From: a virus
Strand: one strand, 5' to 3'
DNA: 64,000 nt
IMG/VR virus record: IMGVR_UViG_3300009514_001427
The notes under the pieces were generated by a model. That model worked only from the letters and a program-made list of their open reading frames with translations, was not told where the DNA came from and did no database searches. How positions within the stretch are numbered: the first letter of the stretch is position 1; the number at the start of each line of letters is the position of its first letter. The position numbers and the translations under genes were made by a program. This document shows, in pieces, positions 3,696-6,028 of this stretch.

Positions 3696-4046
3696 ATGGT
3701 TGGTAGCTTGTTCGTATCACTTTGTTTGTTGTTACACACTCAGATAGAGCAGCCAGATGGAATGCAGTTTTTCAAGGGCTTGCTTTATGAAGCGAACATT
3801 CAGTTAGAGCCTGTTCACGGATGTCAATGGGGTTGGGAGACGATCACTTTCGATGCTTTGCACAAGAAAGTGACTGAGGGAGCGAATTTTCAATGCTGCA
3901 TGAAGGGTCCAGGCGTTATTCCTCCTGGATGTTGTGCGTGGTGTTTTGACGTAGATGGTGACGCGGATGTTGATTTGAAGGATTTCGTGGAATACACTGC
4001 TTGCGCCAGTTTGGTATATGAGGATGAACAAAGGAGATTTCCATGA
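3696..4046 (+). CDS. Cys-rich protein with dockerin/EF-hand-like Ca-binding motif
   Basis: FDVDGDADVDLKDFVEYTA motif; GGGGTGG RBS. Confidence 0.5.
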   Translation: MVGSLFVSLCLLLHTQIEQPDGMQFFKGLLYEANIQLEPVHGCQWGWETITFDALHKKVTEGANFQCCMKGPGVIPPGCCAWCFDVDGDADVDLKDFVEYTACASLVYEDEQRRFP

Positions 4047-4303
4047 TCCGCGTTTTAGTTTGGGGTATTTGTGGCTTTATTGGCAATATGTCAGGTCCAG
4101 GTGTTTTAGAAACCTGCGCGATGGTGGAAGATTTCCTTGAATTCCATGGCGTTAGACCGTATGATTTCGATGGAGACGAAGATGTAGACTTGGCAGATTT
4201 TGCCAAGTTCCAAAACGGGTTTGACGGGACAGGTTTCCGTACTCTGTCCCAGCACATAGAACCAGTACAAGAGGAAAGGTTTGCAAATGGAAGAGTTCAC
4301 TAA
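4043..4303 (+). CDS. protein with dockerin/EF-hand-like Ca-binding motif
   Basis: DFDGDEDVDLADFAKFQNGF motif; AAGGAG RBS; ATGA overlap with upstream gene. Confidence 0.5.
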   Translation: MIRVLVWGICGFIGNMSGPGVLETCAMVEDFLEFHGVRPYDFDGDEDVDLADFAKFQNGFDGTGFRTLSQHIEPVQEERFANGRVH

Positions 4304-4457
4304 GCTCAAAGAGCTGGTAGACGATTGTGCAGATGACTTGGAAAAAGCTGAGAAGGGCAACAAGTCAGCAGGCACGCGCGTCCGCAAGGCAATGCAGGAC
4401 ATCAAGAAGCAGGCTCAGGAAGTACGTCAAGCCATCTTGAAGCTTCGGGGCGATTGA
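4287..4457 (+). CDS. histone H1-like (Hc1-type) nucleoid protein, 56 aa; missing from ORF track (<60 aa)
   Basis: MEEFTKLKELVDDCADDLEKAEKGNKSAGTRVRKAMQDIKKQAQEVRQAI resembles chlamydial Hc1 N-terminal domain (...LLKAEKGNKAAAQRVRTESIKLEKIAK...). Confidence 0.55.
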   Translation: MEEFTKLKELVDDCADDLEKAEKGNKSAGTRVRKAMQDIKKQAQEVRQAILKLRGD

Positions 4458-4684
4458 TGCGACTCTCTTGGGAATATTTGTTTGGCGGCATCTTTTTCTT
4501 TGGATTGTTCTTCTTCAATCCGTTGCTGAAGGCTGTTGGTCCTCAGCAAACGACGATCATCATTTGCGTTGGCTTAGTTGGTATTGCGGTGGTGAAGGTT
4601 GTTGAATGCATGACCGAAGACAAGAGATGTCGCTGTTGTCACGAGGAGACCTCAGAAGAAGACGAAGACGATCTTCTGGATTGA
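4457..4684 (+). CDS. small membrane protein with acidic C-terminal tail
   Basis: two hydrophobic helices then EETSEEDEDDLLD; TGATG overlap with upstream ORF. Confidence 0.4.
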   Translation: MRLSWEYLFGGIFFFGLFFFNPLLKAVGPQQTTIIICVGLVGIAVVKVVECMTEDKRCRCCHEETSEEDEDDLLD

Positions 4685-4705
4685 CGCCCAGTTGGAGCGA
4701 AATTA

Positions 4706-6028
4706 ATGATTGCAGGCGTGTTGGCTCTCTTGTTGGGATCTGTTCCAGCAGACGACGGAGTTGTTCGATTCGTCTCTCCTGTTGAAGCTCAGACTCTTCA
4801 TATTGAATTCAGGTTTCACACTCAATCAGAACAAGGCATTGAAGAGATCGATCTAACGATTCTTCCCTATGAATCTCAGACGAATACGTTTGGGTTTATT
4901 GATTGTCTACGCGGACCCAACGTAGGCTGTGATTCAGAGATGAATACTTTGCCTGCCTGTTGGATCAGGGCGAACAACGGTTCATGGATTGAGCAGTTGT
5001 TTTGCACCAACTTCACCAAGTTTGAGCAATTCAATTCGTACTTAGGTATTTCCGAGGGAGATCCAGTTCCAGATTTTGTTGTTTGGACTTGCCACGGGAT
5101 CACTCCGACGCAGTTCGCTGATTGTCGCAAGTTTGATTTTGACGCGGACAACGACGTTGATTTCCAAGATTTTTCCATCTATCAGAAGCAATACGCTGCT
5201 CCAATTCGTCCTGATGCTCATGCTGTTTGGATTGAGATTAATTCGGCGTCTGCGGAGGAGATGCAGATCTTGGCGGATGGCATTCCATTGTGGGAACCAG
5301 TTGTTGACTATACGATTGTCACTACGACACCTGGCAATGCCAAGGTGGCGATGTATGCTGACATTCAGACTACGAAGCCGCTGGTGGCTGGTCTGAAGCC
5401 TTTGTCGTTGTTTAATTGTACTGTTCCATCTTCTGATGGGACTCATGCTTCATGTGATTTGAATCAGCCTGATGCCTGGGTTCAGTATGGGTTTTGGATT
5501 CAGCAATTCGTTGATGCGACGAAGCATCATGGAATATACCAAGAGGGAGTTCCGGTCTTTGTTCTGGAGAATGAGAGCATTCTTTACGAGAATACGATCA
5601 CTGGCACAAATACCATGGACCCAGTCATTGTTCGCGCGGGATTAGAGAATTTTCCTAAGGATGTGATGTATTATTGGTATCCTGCTGTCAGTTCATATCT
5701 TCCTGAGCGTCGTGCTCGCGAGCAGGCTTTGTACGAGATTGTGGCTGATGTTTTGCCACATGTTCGTTTTGTGGATACCAACAGGGCTCGCCATTTGACC
5801 GTGTTTGAACATTTCGAGATTGCTGGGGTTAAGGCGAATGAGGCGCTGATAGATCGTCCTTTGGTGAACATGATTTATGTTTACCCGAATCAGTTCTATT
5901 GGGAAGATGATCAGGTTGCTGGAGCCCTTGAGTTTATTTTCAAGGGGACTGAGATGATTTTTTATCCTGGTCAGTCTGGTTTTGTTCAGCAGGGTGGCGT
6001 TTTGAATCAAATCCTCCCTCCTCGTTAA
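4706..6028 (+). CDS. secreted protein with dockerin/EF-hand-like motif
   Basis: hydrophobic N-terminus, FDFDADNDVDFQDFSIYQKQY motif. Confidence 0.5.
   Translation: MIAGVLALLLGSVPADDGVVRFVSPVEAQTLHIEFRFHTQSEQGIEEIDLTILPYESQTNTFGFIDCLRGPNVGCDSEMNTLPACWIRANNGSWIEQLFCTNFTKFEQFNSYLGISEGDPVPDFVVWTCHGITPTQFADCRKFDFDADNDVDFQDFSIYQKQYAAPIRPDAHAVWIEINSASAEEMQILADGIPLWEPVVDYTIVTTTPGNAKVAMYADIQTTKPLVAGLKPLSLFNCTVPSSDGTHASCDLNQPDAWVQYGFWIQQFVDATKHHGIYQEGVPVFVLENESILYENTITGTNTMDPVIVRAGLENFPKDVMYYWYPAVSSYLPERRAREQALYEIVADVLPHVRFVDTNRARHLTVFEHFEIAGVKANEALIDRPLVNMIYVYPNQFYWEDDQVAGALEFIFKGTEMIFYPGQSGFVQQGGVLNQILPPR

Follow-up and report, generated by a model that had tools for sequence, protein, structure and literature searches.

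A dockerin-like calcium module shared by five putatively exported proteins of a probable megaphage

Why would phage DNA encode several small proteins that seem to leave the cytoplasm and share a calcium loop of the kind found in dockerins? The question is raised by a 64,000-nucleotide stretch from the IMG/VR virus record IMGVR_UViG_3300009514_001427 (the window, by which we mean that whole stretch), where an initial annotation, made from the sequence alone, described positions 3,696 to 6,028 as a cluster of secreted proteins carrying a D-x-D-x-D-G/A-D-V-D-[LF]-x-D-F calcium-binding motif. The genes concerned are labelled A (3696-4046, plus strand), B (4043-4303, plus), C (4706-6028, plus), D (36182-36727, minus) and E (38673-39965, minus). 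We propose, as a reasonably probable reading, that these five exported megaphage proteins share a dockerin-like Ca2+ module that acts as a calcium-dependent handle at the envelope.

The motif is clearly more frequent than composition would predict. The pattern D.D.D..[VIL]D[LFV].D[FY] matched four times in the six-frame translation of the window and not once in 200 shuffles, with an analytic expectation of ~8e-7. Likewise, a hidden Markov model (HMM) built from the module alignment and run on the 758 stop-to-stop open reading frames (ORFs) of at least 40 aa in the window retrieved exactly A, B, C, D and E, the next ORF lying at E = 0.07. An Asp-rich chance repeat is ruled out by the shuffle test and by the HMM picking these five ORFs only. 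The peptides quoted for the three plus-strand genes were found in their ORFs, as were those attributed to the minus-strand genes D and E. The three plus-strand genes are not strictly consecutive, as had been claimed: A and B are adjacent, and C follows B only after the gene of an Hc1 histone-like protein (4287-4457) and a small membrane ORF (4454-4684). A, B, the Hc1 gene and C are tightly packed, with a Shine-Dalgarno-like sequence 5' of each. The motif also had to be corrected at loop position 6, written as Gly or Ala, where the actual residues are Ala, Glu, Asn or Ala. PROSITE pattern PS00018 matches C (residue 144), the second loop of D and a thrombospondin-type-3 (TSP3)-like loop of E; the loops of A, B and the E module miss it at position 6 or 8.

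In D and E, which have two loops each, the motif is the second loop of a larger unit; A, B and C have one canonical loop each. The complete module of D and E comprises two loop-helix segments within ~75 aa, with loop starts ~34 residues apart, and follows a consensus that we call the Planctomycetota type, GD.N.DG..D..DY..F..C..G......C...FD.D.D.DVD..DF..F. In the homologues of E and D the corresponding segment of ~75 aa reads GD.N.DG..D..DY.Y.HECYSG....A..PC.N.FD.D.D.DVD..DF..F......GN..W and is kept in all of them but P0027, which is without it. Alignment of 20 module sequences showed D13, D24, D47, D55 and D58 to be invariant and D17, D49 and D51 to be at least 90% conserved. These residues coincide exactly with the side-chain ligand positions of two 12-residue EF-hand loops (D13, D17 and D24 in loop 1; D47, D49, D51, D55 and D58 in loop 2), Asp occupying EF-hand ligand positions 1, 3, 5, 9 and 12, as it also does throughout the D family and in the lone loop of each of A, B and C. 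Further conserved positions are C31 and C42, located in the inter-loop linker, and the hydrophobic residues of the helices.

Protein E (430 aa from MSKNW) runs from an N-terminal membrane anchor through a 'PLRVGT..YH.P.C' domain, a Cys-rich beta region, the two-loop module (nt 39033-39266, loops 39192-39230 and 39090-39128, minus strand) and a second small domain to the TSP3-like Ca2+ loop DDDGDGSLNCDD (38748-38786, minus). Its full-length homologues number ~29, with identities of 34-72%; among the 31 proteins retrieved are P0001, identical to E, and two whose match is confined to the TSP3-like repeat or to the module. Protein D (181 aa from MNQKK) is a short version of the central unit of E (133 aa in common, BLASTP 6e-10), in which a signal peptide, a CC motif and a beta-hairpin unit precede the C-terminal, Cys-braced two-loop module (nt 36197-36418, loops 36350-36385 and 36251-36289, minus). 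The second loop of D, DYNRDDLLDLYD, is degenerate in sequence and retains all ligand positions. Six database homologues of D (32-42% identity) all have signal-like N-termini, with the ligand Asp residues and three Cys invariant.

A separate observation concerns the small 'PLRVGT.G..YH.P.C…(R/K).C' domain of E (residues ~83-134 and ~324-376), which stands alone in a neighbouring lipoprotein (38401-38634, minus strand) with an LLIGC lipobox. Neither Pfam nor NCBIfam recognises it. It is modelled at a predicted local distance difference test score (pLDDT) of ~80-90, and structure comparison gives a single hint, 1wpk, the Zn domain of the Ada N-terminus, which Foldseek ranked 24th.

For the three plus-strand proteins A, B and C, the match covers no more than the second half of the HMM (positions 26-65, 46-68 and 43-68; E = 8e-7, 2.6e-5 and 7.6e-6, respectively). 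Judged from these alignments, they carry half-modules in which the second loop and helix are kept and the first loop is degenerate or missing. The Cys-containing linker is retained in A and C. Protein A, a small Cys-rich exported protein of 116 aa with an apolar N-terminal run of 13 residues, ends in its half-module (nt 3882-4004, plus strand; motif 3948-3986, Ca2+ loop DVDGDADVDLKD at 3948-3983), and its gene has the Shine-Dalgarno-like GGGGGTGG just 5' of it. A homologue of A, 42% identical, adjoins an E homologue at L011:10525-10842, and the related contig L001 also encodes a small Cys-rich A-like protein with a C-terminal loop. Protein B, an orphan of 86 aa with an apolar N-terminal segment, carries its motif at 4163-4201 (Ca2+ loop DFDGDEDVDLAD, 4163-4198), preceded by a first-helix remnant, VEDFLEFHG, and has no Cys pair; an AAGGAG Shine-Dalgarno sequence lies 7 nt 5' of its ATG. 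Protein C (440 aa) combines a signal-like N-terminus, a short beta segment, a Cys-containing half-module (nt 5123-5200, plus strand; motif 5135-5173, Ca2+ loop DFDADNDVDFQD at 5135-5170) and a C-terminal domain of ~270 aa with an alternating beta/alpha pattern. Homologues of A, C, D and E in related contigs, at 32-72% identity, indicate that these are real genes.

Within the C family the module is absent from homologue P0034 and from the lipoprotein P0035, and in P0036 it is joined to another kind of C-terminal domain; it is thus gained, lost and swapped, and behaves as a swappable tag. The C-terminal domain of C gave no Pfam match and none in a profile search of PDB sequences. With a poor AlphaFold model (mean pLDDT 45) and Foldseek matches to generic TIM barrels only, it may tentatively be taken for a TIM-barrel-like putative enzyme.

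Is this module a dockerin? The initial annotation pointed to the Pfam families dockerin_1 and EF-hand_5, and no direct match to either was obtained for A-E. The sole Pfam match was EF-hand_6 on D (E = 0.053; 13.7 bits, with the cutoff at 25); hmmscan at E <= 1 found no match of PF00404 Dockerin_1 to the five proteins, whose scores thus did not reach the Pfam gathering threshold of 22.9 bits. A profile of the module itself was more revealing. Searched against all PDB sequences, its top matches were only EF-hand pairs and type I dockerins, with alignments spanning both loops (2jnx_A, 5.6e-6; 3ul4_B, 3e-4; 4fl4_A, 1.6e-3; 1ohz_B, 3.3e-3). Searched against 1.84 billion cluster representatives, it retrieved 8,325 proteins at E <= 1e-3. 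PF00404 Dockerin_1 is listed for 8 of 10 sampled matches. Six of these eight exceed the gathering threshold and contain a matched stretch that is significant; in four of the six (P0038, P0043, P0046 and P0052) the best Dockerin_1 stretch falls on the same residues as the profile match.

The structural model of E points in the same direction. In the module region (block-mean pLDDT ~54-85 over 10-residue blocks) the AlphaFold model shows a loop-helix (255-264), a helix (273-279) and a second loop-helix (289-297). Before loop 1 it places a strand (232-236) and then coil; the missing helix ahead of loop 1 suggests an F-hand, as in dockerins, and not an EF-hand. Foldseek comparison of this model with the PDB returned Clostridium thermocellum dockerins as all of its top seven matches, among them 2ccl_B (probability 0.91, target-normalised TM-score 0.62) and 1ohz_B (0.66). 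Taken together, the PS00018 matches, the PDB profile matches, the Dockerin_1 relatives and the Foldseek dockerins agree with the view, already taken in the initial annotation, that the motif is part of a Ca2+-binding module of EF-hand/dockerin type. The sequence evidence supports D and E carrying a divergent, Cys-braced member of the Dockerin_1/EF-hand clan with predicted Ca2+ binding. Also supported is that identifying this module required custom profiles and that the identification applies in full to D and E only.

Cellular relatives tell a similar story. Against 185,579 species-representative genomes the E family gave five matches, all to the module only and all in Phycisphaerae/Planctomycetota metagenome-assembled genomes (MAGs), with no full-length relatives of E. 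The Phycisphaerae copies form the very C-terminal end of large secreted proteins (a 1,995-aa S8 subtilase, an M14 carboxypeptidase and an FG-GAP giant). Those of the subtilase and the carboxypeptidase fall just below the Pfam threshold as Dockerin_1 or EF-hand_7 (17.8-18.7 bits), and the three others, including the FG-GAP giant, have no Pfam dockerin match. The Cys-braced subtype appears to be systematically under-annotated by PF00404, a subtype that curated profiles overlook. Regarding gene order, in one Phycisphaerae MAG (L019) the S8 subtilase (2241-8225, plus strand) and the M14 carboxypeptidase (8334-10691, minus) are encoded side by side, both ending in the Cys-braced module.

The proteins had further been described as secreted or surface-located, and their N-termini, like those of their homologues, are indeed signal-like, lipoprotein-like or membrane-anchor-like by a crude rule. 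Based on hydrophobicity, this rule found apolar N-terminal runs of 11-19 residues in all five proteins and in none of three cytoplasmic controls. Every homologue has an apolar N-terminal segment except P0029 and P0141, both apparently truncated at the N-terminus, and the N-termini of the E family are apolar, membrane-anchor-like or lipoprotein-like wherever complete. Lipoboxes are present in the homologues P0026, P0028, P0035 and P0074, basic n-regions also occur in homologues, and the abundance of conserved Cys in the five proteins was counted in favour of export.

Mechanistically, the five proteins would cross the inner membrane via Sec, using a signal peptide, a lipobox or an N-terminal anchor. 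In the oxidising, Ca2+-rich extracytoplasmic space, the two conserved Cys would form a disulphide, and the loop Asp residues at positions 1, 3, 5, 9 and 12 would bind Ca2+ and fold the module, with two Ca2+ ions in D and E and one in A, B and C. The folded module would then play the role of a Ca2+-dependent handle, keeping its cargo at the envelope of a Phycisphaerae-like host. The cargoes would be a TIM-barrel-like putative enzyme (C), small Cys-rich domains (A and D) and a membrane-anchored multidomain protein (E). Because no cohesin was found in window ORFs of at least 150 aa, the partner would probably be a host protein, or be encoded elsewhere on the phage genome. We infer the Ca2+ binding, the disulphide, the docking role, the partner and the Phycisphaerae-like identity of the host; the docking function is plausible.

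Several results weigh against this envelope-handle proposal. No Pfam Cohesin was found in any window ORF of at least 150 aa, and for most non-cellulosomal dockerin-like modules no partner is known to have been demonstrated. With one canonical loop only, A, B and C cannot be complete dockerins. Pfam, NCBIfam and PHROGs gave no dockerin or EF-hand match below E = 0.05 on A-E, the E model as a whole is mediocre (mean pLDDT 67, pTM 0.30), and the Foldseek E-values of 0.3-2.9 are not significant, the domain being small within a 430-residue query. The database search for B returned no relatives beyond B itself, on a 153,040-bp JGI contig. The export calls for all five proteins come from a crude hydrophobicity heuristic, and A and C have no basic n-region. 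Regarding the phage setting, no capsid, portal or terminase gene was found among the window ORFs scanned, and IMG/VR scans with E, C and a vault homologue returned no relatives. Without a virion hallmark gene in the window or E and C families in IMG/VR, the phage assignment rests on indirect markers.

Part of this evidence could be explained in a simpler way. The module might be a Ca2+-stabilised folding clasp or a rigid linker, like TSP3/RTX-type Ca2+ sites, with no specific docking partner. Such a role would agree with the lack of a cohesin in the larger ORFs, with the internal rather than terminal position of the module in C and E, with the separate TSP3-like loop of E, and with the half-modules of A, B and C, whose one loop suits a simple Ca2+ site better than a two-faced dockerin. 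We regard this explanation as possible but doubtful. The closest cellular relatives carry the module as a C-terminal appendage on otherwise complete enzymes, and the C family gains, loses and swaps it between different catalytic-like domains, both of which are patterns of a targeting or docking tag rather than of a built-in structural element. In A and D, moreover, the module is the only recognisable conserved C-terminal unit.

A more elaborate version of docking draws on freshwater Phycisphaerae, in which dockerin-tagged M14 and other peptidases have been proposed to sit on cohesin- and TSP3-bearing scaffolds, the 'planctosome' (PMC6461901). The megaphage would export host-type dockerin-tagged proteins into such a scaffold, re-equipping or masking the cell surface during a long infection, and the half-modules of A, B and C would act as a split dockerin, pairing mutually or with host half-sites to rebuild the two-loop EF-hand pair. 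We consider this elaboration unlikely.

Returning to the handle proposal, it presupposes phage DNA, and the indirect markers support the phage-encoded setting assumed in the initial annotation: the tRNA genes, an RF-1 gene and a vault homologue in common with megaphages. The 16 tRNA genes (38324-62781, all minus strand) stand alone or in pairs among the protein genes over ~25 kb, with four Ser, three Arg and three Pro isoacceptors in the set and 12 of the 16 confirmed by Rfam. The RF-1 domain gene (63320-63856, minus) encodes 178 aa with PCRF and RF-1 domains and may represent a truncated class-I release factor or an ArfB-like protein. The major vault protein homologue (48132-50759, minus, 875 aa; Pfam MVP_shoulder at 1.7e-23, Vault_3 and Vault) has as its only GenBank phage matches LR756500, LR756501 and LR756503 ('uncultured phage', 462-kb and 735-kb), at 40-43% identity; LR756501-4 have been called megaphages (PMC9723777). 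Another window ORF matches hypothetical proteins of Vibrio jumbo phages. Proteins identical to those of the window are recorded on the 153,040-bp JGI contig, and contigs of 257, 557 and 581 kb encode relatives of E in a conserved gene order, E … FolD – SLOG – GlnS. Altogether, the window is very probably DNA of a huge phage or megaphage.

Could it instead be the chromosome, a plasmid or an extrachromosomal element of a bacterium of the Planctomycetes-Verrucomicrobia-Chlamydiae (PVC) type, with an ordinary dockerin-tagged secreted set? The scattering of 16 tRNAs between genes over 25 kb and the lack of a family match for most ORFs speak against this, as do the vault homologue, with GenBank phage matches to megaphage records only, the match to Vibrio jumbo phages and the missing full-length relatives of E in the species-representative genomes. 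Translation-related and metabolic genes are also reportedly typical of huge phages (Al-Shayeb et al. 2020). A cellular origin would account for the lack of capsid, portal and terminase genes, for the E and C families not being found in IMG/VR, for one E relative filed under a Promethearchaeota MAG label, and for the housekeeping-like GlnS, FolD and formyltransferase genes and the outer-membrane protein gene. On balance, we judge such an origin distinctly improbable.

Finally, that the loops belong to cytoplasmic EF-hand Ca2+ sensors, or are an Asp-rich low-complexity coincidence, with no link to dockerins is highly improbable: Entamoeba CaBP2 is the best single PDB profile match (2jnx_A, 5.6e-6) and three proteins match PS00018, but coincidence is excluded by the shuffles and the HMM specificity, and a sensor is all but ruled out by the export-type N-termini, the conserved Cys pairs that brace the module and the F-hand topology of the E model, with relatives that are Pfam Dockerin_1 and top Foldseek matches that are all dockerins.

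As to the rarity of such modules in phages, also proposed in the initial annotation, our searches are in agreement: tblastn of E and of the isolated module against 50,697 GenBank phages gave no match, weak evidence since the BLAST low-complexity filter may mask Asp-rich loops, and no PHROG matched either. A metagenome scan with the C family and tblastn of two large unknown ORFs against phages likewise gave no match, and an IMG/VR scan with a polynucleotide-kinase-like protein of the window found three distant loci only.

The remaining genes of the window give some context. The Hc1 gene between B and C (plus strand) encodes a histone H1-like nucleoid protein (Pfam 4.9e-23) and also adjoins C homologues in the related loci L006 and L007; its product may compact host or phage DNA and is a possible clue to the host lineage. 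Upstream, an outer-membrane beta-barrel of the Phenol_MetA_deg family with a signal peptide (2350-3144, plus; Pfam 3.2e-15) is syntenic with the C family in L007, and its presence implies a diderm host. A metabolic block (32490-36231, minus) comprises a formyltransferase, a glutamine synthetase, a YAcAr/SLOG protein and a FolD-like gene, and is conserved in the 257-kb relative L001. As annotated, from a TTG start, the FolD-like ORF shares ~50 nt with gene D, so that the true FolD start is probably an internal ATG. Between D and the next gene, ~1 kb (36887-37878) holds no ORF of at least 100 aa on either strand, and Rfam found nothing meaningful there. Of two polynucleotide-kinase-like proteins (6078-7250, plus, and 55404-56330, minus), one joins a DSPc phosphatase to an AAA_33 kinase and the other AAA_33 to a HAD phosphatase, a pair that suggests RNA or tRNA repair beside the tRNA set. 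A giant ORF (18530-29956, minus, 3,808 aa), in which the only recognised domain is Laminin_G_3 (ConA-like lectin) at about residues 3085-3240, could be an adhesin or a fibre. The window also encodes an SNF2 helicase, a subtilase and an ADP-ribosylglycohydrolase; like the giant ORF, these were counted among the signs of a huge phage. The vault-like shell protein, conserved among huge phages, may merit a study of its own.

These results extend a known, very widespread and poorly understood module to a new genomic context, and the setting is uncommon: a cluster of several tagged small proteins, half-modules included, on a megaphage. If docking were true, the phage would use a cellulosome-like assembly to place its own proteins on the host envelope, possibly for superinfection exclusion, receptor masking, nutrient acquisition or adhesion. 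The thousands of non-cellulosomal dockerin-like modules of unexplained function in Planctomycetota would then become open to experiment, and the finding hints at the host of an uncultivated megaphage lineage.

Compared with known systems, the module resembles the type I dockerin of C. thermocellum (PF00404; Xyn10B, 1ohz_B/2ccl_B, and CelS, 1daq). Both have two F-hand segments in ~60-75 aa and 12-residue Ca2+ loops with Asp or Asn at positions 1, 3, 5, 9 and 12, a hydrophobic residue at position 8 and a spacing of ~34 residues, and both are found on secreted proteins, often adjoining a catalytic domain. The window module, on the other hand, has a Cys pair bracing the inter-loop linker, scores below the Pfam threshold and is only half present in A, B and C. 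In its second loop, D.D.D.DVD, position 7 is Asp and position 6 varies, and the Ser-Thr pair that contacts cohesin in C. thermocellum dockerins, at loop positions 10-11, is not visible in the window loops. A further difference is the genomic setting, which has no cohesin or carbohydrate-active enzyme nearby and is probably phage-encoded. A cellulosome component proper is ruled out by the lack of both of these and by the non-clostridial lineage.

Entamoeba histolytica CaBP2 (2jnx_A), which gave the best profile E-value (5.6e-6), shares two 12-residue Ca2+ loops at the same spacing. However, EF-hand proteins of the CaBP2 type work in the cytoplasm as helix-loop-helix sensors, lack a Cys brace and have Glu at position 12. 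In the window module position 12 is Asp, no helix leads into loop 1, and the proteins have export-type N-termini.

One precedent exists for dockerin domains in a viral context: on a putative virus contig of ANME-2 (anaerobic methanotrophic archaea) from anaerobic alkane-oxidising enrichments they were read as serving surface adhesion (PMC13452462). The likeness, drawn by description only, lies in a virus-encoded dockerin domain adjoining a signal-peptide-bearing, NosD-like protein of adhesion type. It differs in its presumed archaeal host (ANME-2) and in domains that are close to ANME proteins, and that contig has no cluster of several small tagged proteins and no half-modules.

The nearest parallel in module sequence is the C-terminal module of secreted peptidases in Phycisphaerae/Planctomycetota, the subject of the 'planctosome' hypothesis, in which the cohesin partner too is only hypothetical. 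These cellular copies are rich in Ala and Pro and end very large proteins; the phage copies occur on small proteins (86-440 aa), sometimes internally and sometimes as a single loop. The cellular copies have the same Cys-braced consensus, …DF..F..C..GP…C.N.FDFD.D.DVDL.DF..FQ, and are carried by S8 and M14 peptidases and by FG-GAP or Ig-rich giants. In P0031, moreover, the module occurs together with TSP3-like repeats and HYR domains, as in the model of PMC6461901.

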